A DNA stretch of 64,000 nt from Escherichia coli (GCF_013122565.1 NZ_CP053258.1), one strand, 5' to 3'; counted from the first letter of the stretch, positions 1 through 13,094 are shown. Notes: generated from the letters alone by a model not told the origin. Numbers and translations: made by a program.

Positions 1-656
1 GTTTGCAAGGTCTGTACTGCGTTGCTTAAGCCGCCAGCGGCATGTACCACGCCAATAAGCAGCACAACGGTGCCAATCAGCATCACAAGCCCTTGCATGG
101 TGTCGTTCAGCACACTGGCGCGAAAGCCGCCAAAGGCGGTATACAACGCAATGCTGATACCAAAAATCAGCAGCCCGGTTTCATAAGGAATACCCGCCGC
201 GGTTTCCAGCAGGCGCGCACCGCCGATAAACTGCACGGTCATCGCACCAACGAACGCAACCAGCAAACTCAAACTCGCCAGCCACACCAGAAGACGACTC
301 TGGTAGCGGGCAAATAGCATATCGTTCAGCGTTACCGCATTGTAGCGACGCGCGAGAATCGCGAACTTCTTGCCGAGAATACCGAGCGAAAGCCAGACTG
401 CAGGAAGCTGAATCATCGCCAGCAATACCCAACCCAGCCCGTATTTATAAGCAGCTCCAGGCCCGCCGATAAACGAACTGGCACTGATATAGGTCGCGGT
501 GAGCGTCATCGCCAGCACAATACCGCCCATAGAGCGGCTGCCGAGGAAATACTCATTAAGGAAGGTGCCGGTGCTCCGTTTACGCATCGCATAAACAGAG
601 ATACCGAACACCACCACCAGATAGGCGACCAGCGGTAGAATTACTTCAAGCTGCAT
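1..656 (-). CDS. panF: Sodium/pantothenate symporter PanF, N-terminal part (gene continues past window start)
   Basis: Minus-strand translation from ATG at 654..656 gives MQLEVILPLVAYLVVVFGISVYAMRK..., an SSS-family transporter N-terminus; start overlaps yhdT 3' end; alternative in-frame ATG at 660..662. Not in ORF track because it runs off the edge. Confidence 0.9.
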   Translation of the reverse strand, partial: MQLEVILPLVAYLVVVFGISVYAMRKRSTGTFLNEYFLGSRSMGGIVLAMTLTATYISASSFIGGPGAAYKYGLGWVLLAMIQLPAVWLSLGILGKKFAILARRYNAVTLNDMLFARYQSRLLVWLASLSLLVAFVGAMTVQFIGGARLLETAAGIPYETGLLIFGISIALYTAFGGFRASVLNDTMQGLVMLIGTVVLLIGVVHAAGGLSNAVQTLQ

Positions 657-888
657 CGTCATCCTCCAGCGGGATATCGCGATAGATAAATCTCACCATC
701 GCCCAGCACAGGCCAATAAACAGCAGCGGCGTCAGAATGCAGGCCATCTCAAACCAGCGCGGAAAGCCGGTAAAACCGGGAGCAACGCCAGGTAAGTAAG
801 CGGCTACTAACCATACCGCCAGATACAAAAGGGTTAGCCCCAGCGCCCAGCGCGCCTCTTTATGAGCCTGAACAAAACGTGTGTCCAC
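646..888 (-). CDS. yhdT: Small inner-membrane protein YhdT (DUF997)
   Basis: 80-aa ORF with two hydrophobic segments; GTG start with GAGGAGG RBS upstream; overlaps panF start as in the yhdT-panF operon. Confidence 0.85.
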   Translation of the reverse strand: MDTRFVQAHKEARWALGLTLLYLAVWLVAAYLPGVAPGFTGFPRWFEMACILTPLLFIGLCWAMVRFIYRDIPLEDDDAA

Positions 889-980
889 GGAAGGTTTCCT
901 CCTCTCGGGGGGATACGAGAAACGGGCAATTCTACGGCAACTCTTCAGGCAGGGAAAATAATCTGACAGAAAATTGCCGT

Positions 981-1937
981 TCAGTGCTGCTGCAAAAAGT
1001 CTTCAATGTCAGCCAGTGAGGATATCCCTTCCATCGGACCTTGCCGCATTACGGCGAGCGCGCCGCTGGCATTTGCATATTGCAGTGCCTTATGTGCCGG
1101 GAAACCGGATAAGAAAAGAGTGATAAACGTTGCGCCAAAGCAGTCGCCTGCACCCGTTGGATCGATAATTTCGATATCGTGGCCTGTAACATGCTGGGCG
1201 TGTAATGTACCGTTTTTAAGCTTGTAATAGCTGGCCCCACGCTGGGCGCGTTTTATCGCCACATGTTTTACGCCGCCGTGGAGAAGATCGCTAACAATCT
1301 GTTCTTCTGACAGATTTTTGTGACGCGCGAAGAAAGGGAGTTCGCTTTCGCTGGGGATAAAAATATCCGTATATTCAATTAAATAATCGAGGGCCTGCGC
1401 CATTTCAGGAATGCTCAGCATCTCTTTGCGAATATTGGGATCGAAAGAAACGGTGCCGCCAGCCGATTTGATCGTCGTTATTGCTTTACGCATGACATCG
1501 ATCATGCGAAATGAGAACAACGATGAGCCCACAATATGGAGATGGTTACACTGTTTTAGCAGATCCTTATCAATGTGCTCAGCAGTAAACAAACCGCAGG
1601 CGCTGTTAGGGATATTAAAGACGAAATCCCGCTGCTGGGGATTTTGATAACTCACGAACGCCGTACCTGTGACGGCATTGTTCATAACATGGATCCCATC
1701 GGTAATGACACCTTCATGGCGGAGACGCTCTATAATGAGTCGGCCAAAATCATCATTACCAACACATCCAAAGAAGATGGCCCGATGGGACAGTTTTGCC
1801 ACCTGAGCAGCAAAAATTGCTGGCGCACCGCTGGGAAATGGCCCGATAAACTCCCCAGGCTGAGTGAATTTTTGATGTGGGTTGCGGGACAAAAACTCGG
1901 CCAGCAATTCGCCCATAGCGCAGATAGTTATTGTCAC
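981..1937 (-). CDS. PfkB-family carbohydrate kinase (island kinase 1)
   Basis: ORF 981..1991; probable GTG start at 1937 preceded by GAGAGGGG RBS (longest ORF would overlap the upstream regulator). Clear paralog of the kinase at 7472..8434 (shared blocks GPxPSGAPAIF, FDPNIRKEMLxIPEM, DPTGAGDCFG, ALQYANAxGALAVxRxGPMEG). Confidence 0.8.
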   Translation of the reverse strand: MTITICAMGELLAEFLSRNPHQKFTQPGEFIGPFPSGAPAIFAAQVAKLSHRAIFFGCVGNDDFGRLIIERLRHEGVITDGIHVMNNAVTGTAFVSYQNPQQRDFVFNIPNSACGLFTAEHIDKDLLKQCNHLHIVGSSLFSFRMIDVMRKAITTIKSAGGTVSFDPNIRKEMLSIPEMAQALDYLIEYTDIFIPSESELPFFARHKNLSEEQIVSDLLHGGVKHVAIKRAQRGASYYKLKNGTLHAQHVTGHDIEIIDPTGAGDCFGATFITLFLSGFPAHKALQYANASGALAVMRQGPMEGISSLADIEDFLQQH

Positions 1938-1947
1938 AAAACCCCTC

Positions 1948-2778
1948 TCATTCCTGAAGCCTTTCGCGATTGGACCAGGTAAAGCACTCATTACTGGTAT
2001 AAAGGATAACGAAATCAGCCGACTGCAATTGTTGCTGATATTGTTCGTTAATGCTGCGGCTGACGATCACATTTTCTGCCTGATGCAAATGCCCGATAGC
2101 AGCCGTTGATGGCGCAGGGTCGGCGGCAACGATAACTGTCTTATTCTGGGCATGATCGAAACAGAGCTGCCAGGCAGCGGCAAGTCTGGGAACGTTGATA
2201 TTTAAGGTACCATCAGCATCCAGAAGGCTGATTTCCAGAATGCTGTGTGTAATGGTGAAATGCTGAAGTGCCTGTTCGAGCGGTTTTCCGGCCAGTGCGG
2301 TGTCGGGGCGCAGCATTTCACTGCCAGCCAGTATTATTTCGCCATCAATAAACTGATTTGCCAGCAGCGCATGTTCGGGATCGTTGGTGATCAGACGCAG
2401 TTTTTTCACTTCGCTGAGCAAGGGAATGATCTTACGGCAGATTGTTCCATGTCCAAGAAATAGCGTGTCACGGTCGCGAATTAGCCGTGCGCAATGTCGT
2501 GCTATTTCCATTTGTTGTGCCAGAGACAATGGCGCGATCGGTTGTATCGCTTCTGGTTCAGAGGAGAGTGGTGTCGCAATAGCACCGCCAAATGATCGCT
2601 TTAAATATCCCTGTTGCTCCAGATAACTGAGATCGCCGCGGATCGTCACGCCAGAGACACCAAGTTGCGCAGATAAGTCATCAACTTTGATTTCACCCTG
2701 GGCGGCAACAATTTCTGCAATTTTTAATCTGCGTTTCAGTAGGTTAGACGATTTTCTCGGCACGTTAACACTCTTCAT
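1948..2778 (-). CDS. DeoR-family transcriptional regulator (HTH plus sugar-phosphate-binding domain)
   Basis: 276-aa ORF; N-terminal DeoR-type HTH (IAEIVAAQGEIKVDDLSAQLGVSGVTIRGDLSYLEQQGYLKR) followed by a DeoR C-terminal-like domain; directly upstream of kinase 1 on the same strand. Confidence 0.8.
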   Translation of the reverse strand: MKSVNVPRKSSNLLKRRLKIAEIVAAQGEIKVDDLSAQLGVSGVTIRGDLSYLEQQGYLKRSFGGAIATPLSSEPEAIQPIAPLSLAQQMEIARHCARLIRDRDTLFLGHGTICRKIIPLLSEVKKLRLITNDPEHALLANQFIDGEIILAGSEMLRPDTALAGKPLEQALQHFTITHSILEISLLDADGTLNINVPRLAAAWQLCFDHAQNKTVIVAADPAPSTAAIGHLHQAENVIVSRSINEQYQQQLQSADFVILYTSNECFTWSNRERLQE

Positions 2779-3974
<1,196 letters not shown>

Positions 3975-4009
3975 GACGTTGTACCCTACAAAAACAATGA
4001 GGATTGTTT

Positions 4010-4900
4010 ATGAAAAATATTAAATTACTTGGTTCAGCTATGTTGGTGAGCCTGGCATTGTTCTCGCAAAGTTCGTTGGCAAAAGAGTATAAAATTGGTG
4101 CGTCATTATTAACACAGCAACATCCTTTCTATATTGATCTTGCGAATGCCATGAAAGAAGAGGCAAAAAAAGACAATGTCAATTTAAGTGTCTCTATTGC
4201 CAATCAGGATTTAAACAAACAACTTTCTGATGTTGAGGATTTTATTACTAAAAAAGTGGATGCCATTATTATCTCTCCGGTCGATTCGAAAGGCGTCCAG
4301 GCGGCGATAATTAAAGCCGATAAGGCCGGTATTCCCGTTATCACCGTCGACGTCGCTGCGGAAGGCGTTCCGGTCGTATCGCATGTTGCGACCGATAACT
4401 ATGCGGGAGGCGTTGAAGCAGGCAAGTTAATGGGCAAACTTTTGAATGGTAAAGGTACTGTAGCCATTATTTCTTATCCGGCACTACAGTCGGTAGTTGC
4501 GCGCGTTGATGGTTTTAAGAAAGGGTTAAGCGATACTCCGGATATTAAAATTGTTGCTGAACAGCCTGGTATTACGCGGGCTGAAGCGTTAACGACTGCG
4601 CAAAACATTATGCAGGCAAATGCCAACCTGAATGGTCTGTTTGGCTTTGGTGATGATGCGGCGCTGGCAGCGGTTATCGCAGCGAAATCTGCGCATAACG
4701 ACAACATCAAAATCATTGGTTTTGACGGCATGAAAGAAGCGCGTGATGCCGTTGACAGTGAAAAAACGTTTGCGGCCGTGATTCGGCAATATCCCGATAA
4801 AATGGGTGCTAAAGCCATTGATGCCGCTGTTGATCACCTCAATGGTAAACCGGTAGAAAAAATGATCCCGGTACAACCCGGCGTTTATACAGGTAAATAG
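4010..4900 (+). CDS. Periplasmic sugar-binding protein of an ABC transporter (RbsB/PBP type-1 family)
   Basis: ATG at 4010 with GAGGA RBS (track ORF starts at TTG 4004); N-terminal signal peptide (LLGSAMLVSLALFSQSSLA); periplasmic-binding-protein type-1 fold signature by eye. Confidence 0.8.
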   Translation: MKNIKLLGSAMLVSLALFSQSSLAKEYKIGASLLTQQHPFYIDLANAMKEEAKKDNVNLSVSIANQDLNKQLSDVEDFITKKVDAIIISPVDSKGVQAAIIKADKAGIPVITVDVAAEGVPVVSHVATDNYAGGVEAGKLMGKLLNGKGTVAIISYPALQSVVARVDGFKKGLSDTPDIKIVAEQPGITRAEALTTAQNIMQANANLNGLFGFGDDAALAAVIAAKSAHNDNIKIIGFDGMKEARDAVDSEKTFAAVIRQYPDKMGAKAIDAAVDHLNGKPVEKMIPVQPGVYTGK

Positions 4901-4960
4901 TAAACATCTTCACCTCACAACAAAACGTTATTGGCGTTTTGTTGTGACACCGAGGTCATT

Positions 4961-6460
4961 ATGACGGATGTTATTCTTGATGTTTCGCATATTGCGAAGA
5001 CATTTGGTCATGTTCAGGCATTAAAAGATATTACCCTCTCTTTACGTAAAGGGCGGGTGCATACTTTATTAGGCGAGAATGGTGCCGGTAAATCGACATT
5101 AATGAAAATACTGGCCGGTGTTTATCCGCCAACCCAGGGAACGATAACACTACGTGGTGAAACCATCACCATTAATAATCCGCAGCATTCACGCCAGTTA
5201 GGGATTGCGATTATTTTTCAGGAACTGAGCCTGAGTAATAATATGACCGTGGCGGAAAATATTTATGCCAATAATGAACCGCGACGTTTTGGCATTATTA
5301 ACGATAAAAAAATGCTCGCAGATTGTCAGAATCTCCTTGCGGAACTGGGCATCCCACTGGATCCGCTAGAAATGGTCGGCAATATGTCGATGGCACATAG
5401 GCAACTGGTAGAAATTGCCAAAGCCTTAAGCTATGCAGCGGATGTCGTGATTATGGATGAACCGACATCTTCGCTAAGTGATAATGAAGCGGAGATTCTG
5501 TTTAACATTATTGAAAAATTAAAGCAGCGAGGCTGTGCGGTTATTTATATCTCTCATCGCATGGATGAAATTATGCGGATTTCAGATGATATTTCGGTGA
5601 TCCGCGACGGTGAGTATATCTCTACGCATGAAAAGAAAAACAGTGATATCCAGCATTTGATTGCCCAAATGGTTGGTCGGGAAATGAAAAATATTTGGCC
5701 AGCGCGTCTTGGGGAAAAACCGAATGAAAATGTTCCTGCAAAACTGGAAGTAAAAAATCTTTCCCATCCTTCGCTTTTTAAAGAGGTCAGTTTCGCTGTG
5801 CGTCCGGGGGAAGTCCTCGGATTTTTTGGCCTGGTGGGGGCCGGGCGTTCCGATGTGATGAAGGCGCTCTTTGGCCTCGTTTCGTATCACGGGACTGTGT
5901 TGATTGATGGTGAGGAAGTCAGGATCGCTAATCCTAAACAGGCTATTGATCATGACATTGCTTTTGTGACCGAAAACCGCAAGGAAGAAGGGTTAGTACT
6001 GATGCACGACGTCAATATGAACACGCACCATGTAGCGTTTCAATATAACGCTTCGCGGATGGGACTCATCAATCACCGACAAGAAGAGGCGAAGACGCTG
6101 CAATCAATTGCCAGAATGAACACTAAAGTGAGTTCTGTACATCAGGCAGTGGGAGCGCTGAGCGGCGGTAATCAACAGAAAATCGTGTTATCGAAGTGGC
6201 TGGAGAAAACTCCGCGTATTTTATTGCTCGATGAGCCAACGCGCGGAGTGGATGTAGGCGCAAAATTTGAAATCTATAACGTGATTCGTCAACTGGCTGC
6301 GGCAGGGACAGCAATTATTCTGGTGTCCTCTGAACTGCCAGAAGTCATGGCACTTAGCGATCGTCTGGTGGTAATGCGTAATAAAACGATTGCCGATATT
6401 TATTCATGTGAAAATTTAACGCAGACACAGGTAATGACCGCTGCAACAGGAGTACGTTAA
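4961..6460 (+). CDS. ABC transporter ATP-binding protein with duplicated ABC domains (RbsA/MglA-like)
   Basis: Walker A GENGAGKST, ABC signature LSGGNQQK, second Walker-A-like GLVGAGRS; ATG 4961 preceded by GAGG; about 499 aa, typical of sugar-importer ATPases. Confidence 0.85.
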   Translation: MTDVILDVSHIAKTFGHVQALKDITLSLRKGRVHTLLGENGAGKSTLMKILAGVYPPTQGTITLRGETITINNPQHSRQLGIAIIFQELSLSNNMTVAENIYANNEPRRFGIINDKKMLADCQNLLAELGIPLDPLEMVGNMSMAHRQLVEIAKALSYAADVVIMDEPTSSLSDNEAEILFNIIEKLKQRGCAVIYISHRMDEIMRISDDISVIRDGEYISTHEKKNSDIQHLIAQMVGREMKNIWPARLGEKPNENVPAKLEVKNLSHPSLFKEVSFAVRPGEVLGFFGLVGAGRSDVMKALFGLVSYHGTVLIDGEEVRIANPKQAIDHDIAFVTENRKEEGLVLMHDVNMNTHHVAFQYNASRMGLINHRQEEAKTLQSIARMNTKVSSVHQAVGALSGGNQQKIVLSKWLEKTPRILLLDEPTRGVDVGAKFEIYNVIRQLAAAGTAIILVSSELPEVMALSDRLVVMRNKTIADIYSCENLTQTQVMTAATGVR

Positions 6461-7450
6461 ATGACAGAGAAAACTCTTGCCAGTCCGAAACCTTCGGAAA
6501 TTCCCATTGCAAATAATTTTAAAAAAGTCTTCAGGCAATATGGCGGTATCCTCAGTGGAATGGTGGTGTTAATCATTCTGTTCAGTTTTATTAATGACAG
6601 TTTTTTTACCGCCAATAACATTACTAATATTATTCTTCAGGTTTCGATAATTGCAATTACCGCCTATGGAATGACTTATGTACTTTTGCTTGGCGATATT
6701 GATTTATCGGTCGGTTCAACCATTGCATTGATTGGCACATTTGCTGCGCTTGGGGCTTCATGGGGAATTCCATTTATTTTATTGGTCCCATTATCCATTA
6801 TTGCAGCACTGGCTCTGGGGATGATAAATGGTGGCTTGACGGCTATAGCGGGGATCCCCTCGTTTATTGTCACCGTTGCTACTATGGGGATCTTCCGTGG
6901 TATCGCTTATATCGTGACCGATGGTATGCCCATCATGATTAAAGATGATGCCTTTCTGGCGCTGGGGAATGGAGAATTTCTCTATATACCTATTCCTATC
7001 TGGATATTAATCATCTTATTGCTGATTAACCATTTCATTCTTACTAAAACAACCTTTGGACGAAAAATTTATATCACTGGTGGTAATAAAGAAGCGGCAG
7101 TTTATTCAGGGATAAATGTCACCCGCTTGAAAATTAAAGTCTTTATGATCACAGCCGTGCTGGCAGGTATCAGCGGGATGATCCTCGCCTCACGCCTCTA
7201 TTCCGGGCAACCGAATTCCGCGTTGAGCTACGAACTGGATGCTATTGCTGCGGCTGTACTGGGAGGCACCAGCCTGAACGGTGGCTATGGAACCGTGGTG
7301 GGGACGGTGATCGGCGCATTAACCATCGGCGTTATCAATAATGGCATGAACTTAATGAATGTTCCCTATTTTTACCAGATGGTGGTTAAAGGATTAGTCA
7401 TTCTTGTAGCCGTTTATTTTGACGTAAGAAATAAAAGAAAACGCAGCTAA
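6461..7450 (+). CDS. ABC transporter permease (RbsC-like)
   Basis: 329-aa highly hydrophobic multi-TM ORF; ATG immediately follows the ATPase stop (translational coupling). Confidence 0.8.
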   Translation: MTEKTLASPKPSEIPIANNFKKVFRQYGGILSGMVVLIILFSFINDSFFTANNITNIILQVSIIAITAYGMTYVLLLGDIDLSVGSTIALIGTFAALGASWGIPFILLVPLSIIAALALGMINGGLTAIAGIPSFIVTVATMGIFRGIAYIVTDGMPIMIKDDAFLALGNGEFLYIPIPIWILIILLLINHFILTKTTFGRKIYITGGNKEAAVYSGINVTRLKIKVFMITAVLAGISGMILASRLYSGQPNSALSYELDAIAAAVLGGTSLNGGYGTVVGTVIGALTIGVINNGMNLMNVPYFYQMVVKGLVILVAVYFDVRNKRKRS

Positions 7451-7471
7451 TCATTTCAAGGAATTAATCAT

Positions 7472-8434
7472 ATGAGTAAGGTCTTCACAATTGGAGAAAT
7501 TCTGGTTGAAATTATGGCGAGTAAAATCGGCCAGCCATTTGATCAACCAGGTATCTGGAACGGCCCTTATCCCAGTGGTGCGCCCGCTATTTTTATCGAC
7601 CAGGTGACACGTCTTGGCGTTCCGTGCGGCATCATTAGCTGTGTGGGGAATGATGGCTTTGGTGATATTAATATACATCGTCTGGCTGCTGACGGTGTGG
7701 ATATCAGGGGGATTTCAGTCTTACCTCTGGAAGCCACCGGGAGTGCCTTTGTTACTTATCATAACTCTGGCGATCGCGATTTTATTTTTAATATTAAGAA
7801 TGCCGCTTGCGGTAAATTATCGGCACAGCATGTTGATGAAAATATTCTGAAGGACTGTACCCATTTTCATATTATGGGCTCATCCCTGTTTTCGTTTCAT
7901 ATGGTAGACGCAGTAAAAAAAGCGGTAACCATCGTTAAAGCAAATGGTGGCGTTATTTCTTTCGACCCTAATATTCGAAAAGAGATGCTCGATATTCCAG
8001 AAATGCGTGACGCCCTTCACTTTGTTCTTGAGTTAACGGATATCTATATGCCCAGCGAGGGCGAAGTGTTGCTCTTGTCGCCACATTCGACGCCGGAGCG
8101 TGCAATCGCTGGTTTTCTTGAAGAAGGTGTTAAAGAGGTGATTGTGAAGCGCGGCAATCAAGGTGCCAGTTACTACTCCGCGAATGAGCAGTTTCATGTG
8201 AAGAGCTATCCGGTGGAAGAAGTTGACCCGACCGGTGCGGGAGACTGCTTTGGTGGCGCGTGGATTGCCTGCCGCCAGCTAGGGTTTGACGCCCATCGGG
8301 CATTACAATATGCCAACGCCTGCGGTGCACTGGCGGTAACCCGACGTGGCCCAATGGAGGGAACGTCTCGCCTTGCGGAAATCGAAGCGTTCATCCAGCG
8401 CCATGACATGTCCATTCGGGAAGCAGCACAATGA
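7472..8434 (+). CDS. PfkB-family carbohydrate kinase (island kinase 2)
   Basis: 320-aa ORF with PfkB motifs (DPTGAGDCFG, GG..N region); AAGGA RBS; paralog of kinase 1. Confidence 0.85.
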   Translation: MSKVFTIGEILVEIMASKIGQPFDQPGIWNGPYPSGAPAIFIDQVTRLGVPCGIISCVGNDGFGDINIHRLAADGVDIRGISVLPLEATGSAFVTYHNSGDRDFIFNIKNAACGKLSAQHVDENILKDCTHFHIMGSSLFSFHMVDAVKKAVTIVKANGGVISFDPNIRKEMLDIPEMRDALHFVLELTDIYMPSEGEVLLLSPHSTPERAIAGFLEEGVKEVIVKRGNQGASYYSANEQFHVKSYPVEEVDPTGAGDCFGGAWIACRQLGFDAHRALQYANACGALAVTRRGPMEGTSRLAEIEAFIQRHDMSIREAAQ

Positions 8435-9477
8435 AAAACGAAATTTGGTCGTGGATTGGCGATCTCTCGCAGGTTGCCGGAATTAAACACTATGAGTTAC
8501 GTAGTGGCAGAGCAAAGGGTACAGAAGCATTTGATGTCCGTACTGGTGCGGGACTGGCATTTACGGTGGTAAAAGATCGCGCGCTGGATATTGCATGGGC
8601 CAGCTACAAGGACACGGCGCTCTCTTTTATCACCCCCAACGGCATTGTCGCCCCCGCTTTTTTTGAGTCTCAGGGCAACGGATTTTTACGTAGCTTTTAC
8701 GCGGGGTTACTGACTACCTGCGGACTTAGCTACATTGGCACGCCCTGTGAGGATGAAGGAGAAACGCTGGGGTTACACGGGCGTTTGGCTGCGACTCCAG
8801 CAGAAGAGGTGGGGTATCGCACAGAACGGACCGACGACGGCATTGAATTTGTCATCAATGGCAAAGTACGGGAAACGCGATTGTTCGGTGAAAATCTGAC
8901 GCTGGAAAGGACCATTCGCTGCCGTTATGGCGAAAATGTGCTGCGCATTGAAGACAAGGTGACTAATCATGGTTTCACCCGCCAGCCGCTGCAAATTCTT
9001 TATCACTTTAATTACGGCTGGCCTTTATTATCGCCACAGGCAGAAATCTTGCTGTCGGCTAAAAGCGTAACGCCACGAACTCCGCATGCGGCGGAAGGGT
9101 TAACCAGTCATCTGGAGATTTGTACCCCACAGCCCGGTTTTGACGAGCAGGTTTACTATCTCACGTTGAATAGCGACAGTCAGGGGATGAGTAAAGTTGC
9201 GCTGGTGAACGCCGAACTGGGGTGGGGAATTTACGAGAAATTCGACACCATGCAGCTACCCAACTTTATCCAGTGGAAAAATTTAGGCGCGGGTGAATAT
9301 GTTATGGGACTGGAGGTCAGTAATAGTTTTCCTGACGGTCGTGATAAAGAACGAGCGCAGGGGCGTCTGCCCTTTATTGAGCCAGGGGAAACAAAGAAAT
9401 ACTGCTTTGAGCTGGGAATTGTTGATGGTGATGCTGAAATTAGCGCGTTGAAAGCGGAAATTGCAGGCTACCGTTAG
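8431..9477 (+). CDS. Conserved protein of unknown function, possibly aldose-epimerase-like fold (unverified)
   Basis: 348-aa ORF whose ATG overlaps the kinase 2 stop (ATGA), last gene of the + strand island operon; no transmembrane or signal features; family assignment is from memory only. Confidence 0.6.
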   Translation: MKNEIWSWIGDLSQVAGIKHYELRSGRAKGTEAFDVRTGAGLAFTVVKDRALDIAWASYKDTALSFITPNGIVAPAFFESQGNGFLRSFYAGLLTTCGLSYIGTPCEDEGETLGLHGRLAATPAEEVGYRTERTDDGIEFVINGKVRETRLFGENLTLERTIRCRYGENVLRIEDKVTNHGFTRQPLQILYHFNYGWPLLSPQAEILLSAKSVTPRTPHAAEGLTSHLEICTPQPGFDEQVYYLTLNSDSQGMSKVALVNAELGWGIYEKFDTMQLPNFIQWKNLGAGEYVMGLEVSNSFPDGRDKERAQGRLPFIEPGETKKYCFELGIVDGDAEISALKAEIAGYR

Positions 9478-9485
9478 CTAACGGC

Positions 9486-9521
9486 AATAAAAACGCCGGG
9501 CAGCGTTAACAGGCCCGGCGT
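9486..9521 (-). terminator. Rho-independent terminator downstream of accC (minus strand)
   Basis: GC stem CGCCGGGC / GCCCGGCG (9494..9501 and 9513..9520) followed on the minus strand by TTTTTATT; lies between accC and the island. Confidence 0.6.
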
Positions 9522-9567
9522 TGATTACGTTCTTTGCTAAGCGCGATGAACCACCGCGCGTCACAAA

Positions 9568-10917
9568 TTATTTTTCCTGAAGACCGAGTTTTTTCTCCAG
9601 ATAGTGGATGTTAGTGCCACCATGCTGGAAGTTCTCGTCATTCATGATGCGGATCTGCAGATCAACGTTGGTTTTGATACCGTCGATGATCAGCTCCTGC
9701 AGCGCATTCTTCATGCGGGCAATCGCCACGTCACGGTTTTCACCGTAGCAAATCAGCTTACCGATCATTGAGTCATAGTACGGCGGTACGGTGTAGCCCG
9801 CGTAGATATGAGACTCCCAACGTACGCCAAAACCGCCAGGTGCGTGGAAACGGGTGATTTTGCCCGGGCTTGGCAGGAAGGTGTTCGGATCTTCGGCGTT
9901 GATACGACATTCCACCGCATGGCCGCGAACGTGAACTTCTTCTTGCTTGATCGACAGCGGTTGACCGGCAGCGATACGCAGCTGTTCTTTGATCAGGTCA
10001 ACGCCGGTGATCATTTCTGTAACCGGGTGTTCTACCTGAATACGGGTGTTCATTTCGATGAAATAGAACTCGCCGTTTTCGAACAGGAACTCGAAAGTAC
10101 CTGCACCGCGATAGCCGATATCAACACACGCTTTAGCGCAACGTTCGCCGATGTAGCGACGCAGTTCCGGGGTAATGCCCGGTGCTGGTGCTTCTTCGAC
10201 CACTTTCTGGTGGCGGCGCTGCATGGAGCAGTCACGTTCCGCCAGATAGATAGCGTTGCCCTGACCGTCAGCCAGTACCTGAATCTCGACGTGGCGAGGA
10301 TTTTCCAGGTATTTCTCCATGTAAACCATATCGTTGCTGAAAGCAGCTTTCGCTTCCGCACGGGTCATGGAGATGGATTGTGCCAGTTCAGCGTCGCCGC
10401 GCACTACGCGCATACCGCGACCACCGCCGCCGCCGGAGGCTTTGATAATCACCGGATAACCAATGCGTTTAGCAATGGCACGGTTTTTATCCATATCGTC
10501 GCCCAGCGGGCCGTCAGAACCCGGTACGCAAGGGACGCCCGCTTTTTTCATCGCCGCGATTGCGGATACTTTGTCGCCCATCAGGCGAATGGTTTCTGCT
10601 TTCGGGCCAATGAAGATAAAGCCGGAGCGTTCAACCTGCTCTGCAAAGTTGGCGTTCTCGGAGAGGAAGCCGTAACCCGGATGGATTGCTACTGCGCCGG
10701 TGATTTCAGCGGCGCTGATGATTGCCGGGATGTTCAGATAACTTTTTACTGACGGAGCAGGGCCAATACAGACCGTTTCATCTGCCAGTAATACGTGTTT
10801 TAGATCGCGATCCGCGCTGGAGTGCACAGCGACAGTCTTGATGCCCAGTTCTTTACAGGCACGAAGAATACGCAATGCAATCTCGCCGCGGTTGGCAATA
10901 ACAATTTTATCCAGCAT
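9568..10917 (-). CDS. accC: Biotin carboxylase subunit of acetyl-CoA carboxylase
   Basis: 449-aa product [27 protein letters not shown]... recognisable as AccC; track ORF extends 13 codons upstream. Confidence 0.95.
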
Positions 10918-10927
10918 GTTCGCCTCG

Positions 10928-11398
10928 TTACTCGATGACGACCAGCGGCTCGTCAAATTCTACCGGTTGTCCACTTTCGACCAGAATTGCTTTCACGGTA
11001 CCGGATTTGTCCGCTTCGATCTGGTTCATCATTTTCATGGCTTCAACGATGCACAGGGTATCGCCCACGTTGACTTTCTGACCCACTTCGATGAACGCTT
11101 TTGCGTCCGGGCTTGGGGTGCGGTAGAAAGTACCAACCATCGGGGAGCGTACGATGTGACCACTGATTTCCGCTGCTGCTGGCGCTTCCATGGAAGGAAC
11201 GGTCGCCGGAGCGGCTGCGTTAGATTGAGCTGGCTGCTGCATCATTGGTGCAGCGTAAGCTTGTTGCATCACAGGGAAACTTGCGGCAGGAGCTGCACGG
11301 CTAATGCGTACTGACTCTTCGCCTTCAGAAATTTCCAGTTCGGAGATGCCTGATTCTTCAACCAGCTCGATCAGTTTTTTAATCTTACGAATATCCAT
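10928..11398 (-). CDS. accB: Biotin carboxyl carrier protein (BCCP)
   Basis: 156-aa product with Ala/Pro-rich linker and the biotinylation motif EAMKMMN. Confidence 0.95.
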
Positions 11399-12165
11399 GA
11401 GTGGGTTCCGTACTCTTTGTTTAGTGTGATTGTGACAGGCGTTTCACCGCCGTCTGTAAAGCGTATGCCCCGACAGCTGTATGCATAGCGATAAATTCCA
11501 GCAGGCCGGGACGCCGGTCTATTTTGCCCCAGAGTGTCAATGTTAGACTTGACGGACATTGTGCAGCGATCTGCTGCTATCCTCCGGCAAAAAACAAAAT
11601 ATACCTTCGTTGCGCCAATGTCACCTTTTCCGCAGCGCAAAAACTGCGTCAGGGAGGACGAGGTCGCACATTATAACGATTTCGTAGCAATTGGCAGCTA
11701 AATACTGGTCTTATCAGGGAAGATAATCAACAGCTAACATGTAAATAACCTTCAACACCGTGTAATTTGCAACAAGCCGCACAATTCACGAAATTAGCGC
11801 CATCATCGACGGAACTTCTTATAACGTAAGGTGAAAAGCTGTAAAGCCAGCCCTGCGAAGATGAGGGGCTGCAATGAGATAATCTTCACAGACCACAAAT
11901 AATGTAGGGATGCCAGGATCGCGACAAGATAGACGACATTACGCAGCGGTTGCTGGGGATTACCCAATTTTCACTGCATCGTCTGGATAGATGTGAATGC
12001 TAAAGCACGCAAAATTAACCGATTGACAATGCTCAGCATTAAATAGGTTCGAGTGATTAATTTGTAGTCAAACAAAATCAGATTATTCACCCCATTTTGC
12101 AGAAGGTAAACTGTTTTGTCAGGCGGCAGTGCGGCTATCTGATGCTTTCAGAATTTGCCACCTGA
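11399..12165 (-). promoter_or_regulatory. accBC promoter and long 5' leader region
   Basis: About 770 bp non-coding region upstream of accB with no convincing ORF; accB is known to have a long leader. Boundaries not mapped. Confidence 0.35.
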
Positions 12166-12200
12166 CAATAAAAAAGCCGATTTGGTAGCAAAATCGGCTT
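12166..12200 (-). terminator. Rho-independent terminator downstream of the 276-aa hypothetical gene (minus strand)
   Basis: Stem AGCCGATTT / AAATCGGCT (12175..12183 and 12191..12199) with a 7-nt loop, followed on the minus strand by TTTTTTAT. Confidence 0.55.
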
Positions 12201-12263
12201 CGGTGAGTTTGCGGCATTCATCACATACTCCGACAAGCTTTTTCAAGCATGACGGAGGTTGCG

Positions 12264-13094
12264 TTAATGCAAGGTTTCTACCCAGGGATAAAAGTGACCG
12301 TTACGGCGGATGAATATCTGTGTTGTCAGAGGATGGTCATCCTCACGGAAGCATTGTTCTGTTAACTGTCGTAATGCGCTGAGATTTGCTGGCTGATCAT
12401 TGTGGGTGAAAAACAGTTTTCCTCGGGAGGGAACAGTCACTAACAGGTCGCCGCATTCAGGATCGGGTGATTGCACCCAAAGATCGTCAATGAGCATCAG
12501 ACTGGGCTCATAAGTACCCCCTGCGGAGATAACGGCAACTTTTCCATCGTTTGCGCCTGTATCAACGATTTCAGCCGTAACTTCCGGCAATATTTGCTTC
12601 AAATTACTGATGGCTTGTTCGCGGTCAATGGTCACTTCGTAGCGCATCAGATAGCGCATGGTTTCGCTACCATCTTCAGCAAACAAGATAATTAACTCAT
12701 CGTTAAAGTCTTCCCAGGCAAAATCCAGCGAGGCGTTGAGGACCTCTGGATCAGACTCATACTGGCTAAGCTGTTGGCGAACGGTATCCAGCCAGGCTTT
12801 TTCTTTAATCACCGGAACAATACAGCGCCCGGTCGGCAGCATTTCTGCAAGCTGTTTCAGCATATCTGCAGCCACTTCTTGCAGCGGGTCTGGTGCGGCT
12901 TGATAACGTTTGTAGGCATCATCAAGGGTGATTTCCACCGTTTGGTGACCCGTATCAATGCGCATCAATTTATGGTCAGTCGAAATCATGACTTTCCAGT
13001 TTGGATGATGTTGTACAACTTCATGACCAAGATGTTCGACGAAAGCTGTCCGGCTAACCGCTTTTCCCGTTAACCGATTGAATAATGATTTCAA
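12264..13094 (-). CDS. Hypothetical protein, 276 aa, function unknown
   Basis: Long ORF downstream of acuI on the same strand; probable TTG start with GAGGG RBS; own terminator; no family recognised by eye. Confidence 0.6.
   Translation of the reverse strand: MKSLFNRLTGKAVSRTAFVEHLGHEVVQHHPNWKVMISTDHKLMRIDTGHQTVEITLDDAYKRYQAAPDPLQEVAADMLKQLAEMLPTGRCIVPVIKEKAWLDTVRQQLSQYESDPEVLNASLDFAWEDFNDELIILFAEDGSETMRYLMRYEVTIDREQAISNLKQILPEVTAEIVDTGANDGKVAVISAGGTYEPSLMLIDDLWVQSPDPECGDLLVTVPSRGKLFFTHNDQPANLSALRQLTEQCFREDDHPLTTQIFIRRNGHFYPWVETLH

Follow-up and report, generated by a model that had tools for sequence, protein, structure and literature searches.

The window analysed here, a single strand of 64,000 nucleotides from Escherichia coli (GCF_013122565.1, NZ_CP053258.1), carries between the core genes yhdT and accC a non-mobile accessory islet, positions 889-9567, which is almost certainly the E. 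coli tag locus for the catabolism of free D-tagatose, with a tagK-tagR pair divergent from a tagY-tagA-tagB-tagC-tagD-tagE operon. Publications of 2022 and 2025 had already covered this locus together with its substrate, pathway and regulator, and the finding in the window is correct but not new. An initial annotation, made from the sequence alone, had described eight genes at this place that are absent from K-12, had read them as a tagatose-like route combining an ATP-binding cassette (ABC) importer, a PfkB kinase and a class II aldolase without a phosphotransferase system (PTS), and had called the substrate unknown, which implied a novel system. The gene content, the absence from K-12 and the route all stand, the route being that of the published tag locus; what does not stand is the unknown substrate, as D-tagatose is the demonstrated growth substrate of the ortholog in E. 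coli Nissle 1917 (EcN) (PMC9720028; PMC12226905). The claim to novelty fails because the cluster matches this characterised pathway with a known substrate, each gene being 97-99% identical to its counterpart there.

Ha et al. 2022 (iScience, PMC9720028) described in EcN, between accC and yhdT, 8.5 kb of DNA with eight genes that K-12 lacks; the gene order is that of the window, and 341 bp separate the two divergent gene groups. The names tagK, tagR, tagY, tagA, tagB, tagC, tagD and tagE come from Park et al. 2025 (Microb Cell Fact, PMC12226905), who also defined the promoters and the TagR repressor. Compared with the EcN reference locus (NZ_CP058217, HW372_RS02435-02470, equivalent to ECOLIN_RS18670-18705), the eight genes of the window have identical lengths and 97.1-98.8% nucleotide identity, with no gaps and no internal stops, and their products differ by two to six amino-acid changes each (98-99.4% identical). 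Window positions 1-12095 align to EcN as one block with a single gap, both junctions included. Every property of the E. coli tag locus that can be tested on sequence is found here: the gene order and orientation, the yhdT/accC site, the near-identity to EcN and the 341-bp control region. Judged from this gene-by-gene identity and from the conserved operators, CRP site and promoters, the window carries an intact allele of the named, published tag locus.

The function of the ortholog is documented by genetics. In Nissle 1917, deletion of the six-gene operon, or of tagD alone, abolishes growth on D-tagatose, and the plasmid-borne operon makes K-12, BL21(DE3) and W strains tagatose-positive (PMC9720028). 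Tagatose growth conferred by the operon in K-12, a background without tagK, needs pfkA and not pfkB; induction by tagatose ranges from 40-fold to more than 1000-fold for the operon and is only some 2-fold for tagRK (PMC9720028). Differential RNA-seq revealed one transcription start site per operon, two in all; overexpression of TagR prevents induction as well as tagatose growth, and the system is under glucose repression (PMC12226905).

The features of the locus and its flanks, in window coordinates, are as follows.

646-888, minus strand: yhdT, left flanking core gene, starting with GTG in the window and in EcN and with ATG in K-12
889-980: left spacer, 92 bp, island-specific, separates the tagK stop from the yhdT start, without homology to the K-12 yhdT-accC spacer
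981-1937, minus strand: tagK (from its probable GTG start), second PfkB-family sugar kinase, 52% identical to TagD
1948-2778, minus strand: tagR, DeoR/GlpR-family (AgaR/DeoR-like) repressor of the tagY operon, 273 of 276 residues as in EcN TagR
2779-3119: divergent control region, 341 bp, 329 of 341 bases identical to EcN (12 substitutions)
2797-2824, minus strand: Preg, with -35 TTCAAA and -10 TATAGT, elements as defined in PMC12226905
3006-3021: CRP-like site TTCGA-N6-TCACG, conserved, definition from PMC12226905
3044-3049: Ptag -10 TAGTTT, in place, definition from PMC12226905
3051-3069, plus strand: tagO1, predicted operator for TagR, overlaps the transcription start of Ptag, 18 of 19 bases matching EcN (one mismatch)
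3075-3093, minus strand (inverted orientation): tagO2, predicted TagR operator, 19 of 19 bases matching EcN
3120-3974, plus strand: tagY, class II tagatose-1,6-bisphosphate aldolase, GatY family
4010-4900, plus strand: tagA, periplasmic substrate-binding protein, RbsB-like CUT2 family
4961-6460, plus strand: tagB, two-domain sugar ABC ATPase, RbsA-like
6461-7450, plus strand: tagC, ABC permease, RbsC/AraH-like
7472-8434, plus strand: tagD, D-tagatose kinase, PfkB family
8431-9477, plus strand: tagE, 348 aa, DUF4432, 'aldose 1-epimerase family protein' in sources
9478-9567: right spacer, 90 bp, island-specific, between tagE and the accC stop codon
9568-10917, minus strand: accC, right flanking core gene, protein identical to EcN AccC

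Boundaries and composition of the islet

A map of open reading frames (ORFs) places eight substantial frames between yhdT and accC, two on the minus and six on the plus strand, and NCBIfam and Pfam scans confirm the families of all eight products; the gene types and strands are those that the initial annotation had given. Similarity to K-12 reaches exactly to the start codon of yhdT on one side and sets in again with the stop codon of accC on the other, which makes 889-9567 (8,679 bp) the variable segment; in K-12 MG1655 the eight genes are absent and a spacer of only 108 bp separates yhdT from accC. Of the extent proposed earlier, 889-9521, the left edge is exact and the right edge falls short, strain-specific DNA reaching 9567 at the accC stop codon. 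The K-12 spacer has no similarity to either island end above shuffled controls (scores of 14-18, with shuffle means near 13-14), and because of this the K-12 and window alleles are better described as replacements of one another than as the product of a pure insertion. A classic insertion point within the K-12 spacer was sought by homology to the island ends, and none emerged from this comparison.

The accC terminator had been taken as the outer landmark of the island; it belongs itself to the island-specific DNA and differs in sequence from the K-12 terminator. The right spacer contains a GC-rich hairpin (stem 9492-9501 / 9513-9522), after which the minus strand reads UUUUUAUU (U-tract 9484-9491), and the 90-nt spacer folds at -40.4 kcal/mol (z = -4.4). 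Hairpin and UUUUUAUU together read as a putative intrinsic terminator of accBC, and the same hairpin may possibly act as a bidirectional stop that also serves tagE. A search of the locus against Rfam found no structured RNA families.

The G+C content of the island is 46.4%, compared with 51.9% in the remaining window. There is no integrase or transposase among the eight genes and no room left for one; the tRNA scan of the whole 64-kb window came back empty, and the repeat scan gave no flanking direct or inverted repeats beyond short matches at chance level. The marks of a mobile genomic island (genes for integration or transposition, a tRNA gene or other attachment site, direct repeats at the ends) are therefore not found here, and the description of the segment as a metabolic islet rather than a mobile element is borne out. 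In the control region, the chance expectation of each operator match is about 0.01-0.02.

Proposed pathway and the roles of TagK and TagE

In the proposed pathway, TagA would bind periplasmic D-tagatose and TagB/TagC would import it at the expense of ATP, after which TagD would phosphorylate it to D-tagatose-6-phosphate. The housekeeping PfkA, encoded elsewhere, would then form D-tagatose-1,6-bisphosphate, which TagY would cleave to dihydroxyacetone phosphate and glyceraldehyde-3-phosphate, both passing into glycolysis. TagR would repress Ptag via tagO1 and tagO2 until tagatose is present; TagR and TagK would be made together from Preg at a low, near-constant level, and the CRP site would add catabolite repression. 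The individual biochemical activities of TagA, TagB, TagC and TagY in this scheme are inferred only. TagY scores 476.8 bits on TIGR01858 (cut-off 443.55) and 528.8 bits on NF009374 (cut-off 383), passing both curated cut-offs. A protein near-identical to TagD (E = 1e-217) entered the PDB in about 2009 as 3IQ0/3K9E, under the name 'putative ribokinase II', a label older than the tagatose-kinase assignment.

The second kinase, TagK, begins in RefSeq at ATG 1916 (311 aa), a start without a Shine-Dalgarno sequence. The GTG at 1937, 21 bases upstream and directly after the tagR stop codon, is preceded by GAGGGG (1942-1947) and 4 nt, and the arrangement in EcN is the same. The seven residues that this start adds, in the conserved stretch VT(I/L)TIC(A/T)M, restore an N-terminal strand that TagD has, and tagK is called from the GTG in two further loci, that of Citrobacter farmeri and that of contig L013 (319-321 aa). 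Because of the Shine-Dalgarno sequence, the conserved extra residues and the start called in these two loci, the true tagK start is probably GTG 1937, with a predicted product of 318 aa, and the E. coli records are probably mis-annotated.

As to what TagK does, a role as the missing tagatose-6-phosphate 1-kinase ranks low: it shares 52% identity with TagD, and its best matches are tagatose-kinase and KdgK/fructokinase-like models and not the LacC/FruK/PfkB branch of 1-phosphofructokinases (1-PFK). The pfkA requirement also speaks against such a role, but was shown only in the K-12 background that has no tagK. Our best guess is that TagK is a constitutively expressed paralogous kinase, which may act as a priming or inducer-forming enzyme.

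The 348-aa product of tagE had the right length in the initial annotation and was listed there as unknown; it is a DUF4432 protein that resembles aldose 1-epimerases. An AlphaFold2 model of TagE, built on an alignment of 26 homologs that also served as a profile, is confident (pLDDT 89.5). In Foldseek it matches 3TY1, an uncharacterised Klebsiella protein, at a TM-score of 0.91, and galactose mutarotases (GalM) and a yeast hexose-6-phosphate mutarotase at about 0.6, the GalM matches having a probability of 1.00. By this model TagE is predicted to have a galactose-mutarotase-like beta-sandwich fold. His116, His192 and Glu295, candidate counterparts of the catalytic His/His/Glu residues of GalM, are invariant in the alignment of 26 homologs. 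By sequence, phmmer and the 26-sequence profile run against the PDB reach only 3TY1 and not GalM.

In distant bacteria, DUF4432 genes lie beside PfkB and FGGY kinases, class II aldolases, fucose-isomerase-like and mannitol-dehydrogenase-like enzymes and CUT2 ABC transporters. The fold, the invariant residues and these gene neighbours fit an accessory enzyme whose substrate is one ring form or anomer of a sugar. A 2-ketohexose in its pyranose form has O6 locked in the ring, and a helper that converts pyranose to furanose upstream of a 6-kinase is attractive for this reason. By analogy with RbsD, our best guess is that TagE would be a mutarotase or pyranase supplying the kinase with a furanose or open-chain form with a free O6; a sugar-6-phosphate mutarotase is also possible. 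A search of the literature on DUF4432 and on follow-up work on tagK and tagE found nothing functional, and a mutarotase or pyranase role of TagE, if true, would be the first function for DUF4432. In one assembly of ATCC 25922 (L001 9828-10873), tagE is annotated as a frameshifted pseudogene and the other seven genes are intact; the frameshift may be a natural knockout or an assembly error.

Taken as a single proposal, TagE would be a ketohexose mutarotase or pyranase, TagK would either make the phosphorylated effector that releases TagR or serve a second natural substrate, and the islet would be ancient at the yhdT/accC site in the Enterobacteriaceae and repeatedly lost. We put this combination forward tentatively, as a possibility that is more easily doubted than accepted in all its parts.

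Several points weigh against the assignment to D-tagatose and against carrying the Nissle 1917 results over to the window. Even in Nissle 1917 the in vitro enzyme activities, the TagA ligand and direct binding of TagR to its operators remain inferred, as the authors state, and the identity of the TagR effector and the roles of TagE and TagK likewise (PMC9720028, PMC12226905). Growth on tagatose has been shown for the EcN ortholog only, and the window alleles differ by at least 1.2% from those of every complete RefSeq E. coli genome. TagD scores 414.3 bits on the NCBIfam tagatose kinase equivalog NF049991, 6 bits under its cut-off of 420, and TagK reaches 343.2 bits, well under it. GatY and KbaY need GatZ/KbaZ-type partners for full activity (PMC9720028), and no such partner for the GatY-like TagY is found among the eight island genes. 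D-tagatose is also scarce in nature (PMC12226905), and because of this rarity it may not be the substrate under selection. The scarcity and the low score of TagK would suit a locus that evolved for another natural substrate (another ketohexose, a ketose derivative, or a mucus or diet sugar), with D-tagatose as a side substrate and TagK and TagE serving the real one; so would the observations that tagK and tagE, although without an assigned role, are maintained by purifying selection and found in more than one genus, and that DUF4432 proteins occur in clusters for several different sugars. Such an origin is nevertheless improbable: D-tagatose induces the operon more than 1000-fold, the operon is necessary in EcN and sufficient in K-12, B and W strains for growth on it (PMC9720028), the curated NCBIfam tagatose-kinase model is the family closest to TagD, and the homologous transporter and kinase module of rhizobia has also been assigned to tagatose (PMC9720028). 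That the window copy is in decay and has lost its function, like the copies of ATCC 25922 and some Shigella boydii strains, is hardly credible at all. The frameshifted tagE of ATCC 25922, the pseudogenes and partial copies in other strains (PMC9720028) and the absence of the source strain from the complete RefSeq E. coli genomes would allow it; against it are eight full-length frames without internal stops, 98-99.4% of residues as in the functional EcN proteins, conserved promoters and operators and a ratio of nonsynonymous to synonymous divergence (dN/dS) of about 0.07. We retain the reading of an intact tag locus for D-tagatose.

Evolutionary history and other differences in the window

Presence and absence of the segment, which the initial annotation had left to a search of E. 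coli genomes, can now be stated and the junctions are defined. A megablast search with the island alone finds it in 1,422 of 5,426 complete RefSeq E. coli genomes (26%), in 1,419 of them over at least 80% of its length; the remaining genomes match the flanks only. The best identity in this collection is 98.8% for the island, whose nearest alleles include that of the O8:H8 strain 16F5M1D1, and 99.0% over 24.9 kb for the backbone, which points to a lineage outside the collection. The island is strongly enriched in phylogroups B2 and F, and a recent horizontal transfer has been proposed for it (PMC9720028).

This proposal was weighed by comparing the synonymous divergence of the eight island genes with that of 14 flanking core genes in three pairwise comparisons. 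The values for island and flanks are 0.066 and 0.067 between the window and Nissle, 0.042 and 0.043 between the window and O8:H8 16F5M1D1, and 0.067 and 0.061 between Nissle and O8:H8; across these three lineages dN/dS of all eight genes is about 0.06-0.07, indicating purifying selection. Citrobacter farmeri also has these eight genes between yhdT and accC, and so does a contig with a TagE cluster that a source labels Superficieibacter electus, in both at 75-82% nucleotide identity to the window, similar to that of the neighbouring yhdT and yhdH, and the G+C content of the island is below that of its flanks in those genomes too. A recent acquisition could draw on the low G+C content of the island in the window and on its patchy spread with the B2/F enrichment, and a movement of island and flanks together by homologous recombination would give the same pattern of divergence. 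We nevertheless consider a recent horizontal acquisition unlikely, given that island and adjacent core genes show equal synonymous divergence in each of the three comparisons, that the same genes occupy the same site in the non-E. coli loci and have diverged there much as yhdT and yhdH have, and that no integrase, tRNA or repeats were found. Because island and flanking core genes have diverged at a like pace and the site is the same in Citrobacter farmeri, long residence is favoured; the evidence, from the few genomes compared, is suggestive of long residence with losses, or of movement together with the flanks by homologous recombination, over recent horizontal transfer.

Elsewhere in the window, an 856-bp segment (12096-12951) lies between accB and yhdH, where K-12 and Nissle 1917 have about 100 bp instead. 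It completes an intact ORF of 276 aa (12264-13094, minus strand), which is a 'hypothetical protein' in O8:H8 16F5M1D1 and has weak, sub-threshold matches to DUF1444/PRK13668. In EcN, a pseudogene remnant of YedZ (MsrQ-like) is annotated upstream of accB, corresponding to window positions of about 11800-12190, and Citrobacter farmeri and contig L013 have an intact Ferric_reduct and Oxidored_molyb gene pair at the position of this remnant (L011 13340-14944). In E. coli, the accB-yhdH interval thus seems to be a place where genes decay. Between sspB and nanR, at 41069-42827, lies a gene for a DcuC-family C4-dicarboxylate transporter (ORF 41082-42467, minus strand), which K-12 also has and Nissle 1917 lacks, with about 75 bp in its stead. 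At 49619-49674, only about 55 bp join yhcG to gltD, and about 7 kb of K-12 are absent: gltF, yhcA, yhcD, yhcE (interrupted by IS5) and yhcF, a chaperone-usher fimbrial cluster.

The practical relevance of the tag locus is that D-tagatose is a marketed sweetener and that the locus marks B2 and F lineages, which include strains of extraintestinal pathogenic E. coli (ExPEC) and adherent-invasive E. coli (AIEC). What remains of interest beyond the published work lies in the possible roles of TagK and TagE, the probable mis-annotation of the tagK start and the evidence on the age of the islet at its site.

Comparison with known sugar-catabolism systems

The closest relative of the window locus is the tag locus of Nissle 1917 and other B2 strains, which shares its eight genes, their order and orientation, the yhdT/accC site, the 341-bp intergenic region and the operators. 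The differences are allelic only, on a different host backbone, whose identity to complete RefSeq E. coli genomes does not exceed 99.0%. The ABC-dependent route of rhizobia (Sinorhizobium meliloti TagABC-TagD-TagE; Agrobacterium tumefaciens C58; PMC9720028) has in common with it a CUT2 importer and a PfkB-family D-tagatose 6-kinase. The two routes part after the kinase: in rhizobia a D-tagatose-6-phosphate 4-epimerase leads to fructose-6-phosphate, whereas the window has a DUF4432 mutarotase-like protein in that position, with PfkA and a class II aldolase downstream (PMC9720028).

The PTS-based systems, namely the tag genes of Klebsiella oxytoca and the gatYZ and kbaYZ/aga genes of E. coli, share with the window a GatY/KbaY-type aldolase and a DeoR-family repressor, and in the aga system the layout of CRP and operator sites resembles that of the window. 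The window differs from them in having ABC uptake and a soluble kinase, with neither PTS genes nor a GatZ/KbaZ-like gene. Indeed the hallmarks of a PTS-type pathway are missing, as there are no enzyme II (EII) genes and both kinases fall into the KdgK/fructokinase-like branch and not the 1-PFK branch.

The rbs operon (rbsDACBK), finally, shares the RbsB/A/C-like transporter and a PfkB kinase. By its modelled mutarotase-like beta-sandwich, which is not the RbsD/FucU fold, TagE appears unrelated to RbsD, a small pyranase with an accessory role, which works on the free sugar in its ring form, and it is RbsD that provides the working analogy for TagE.

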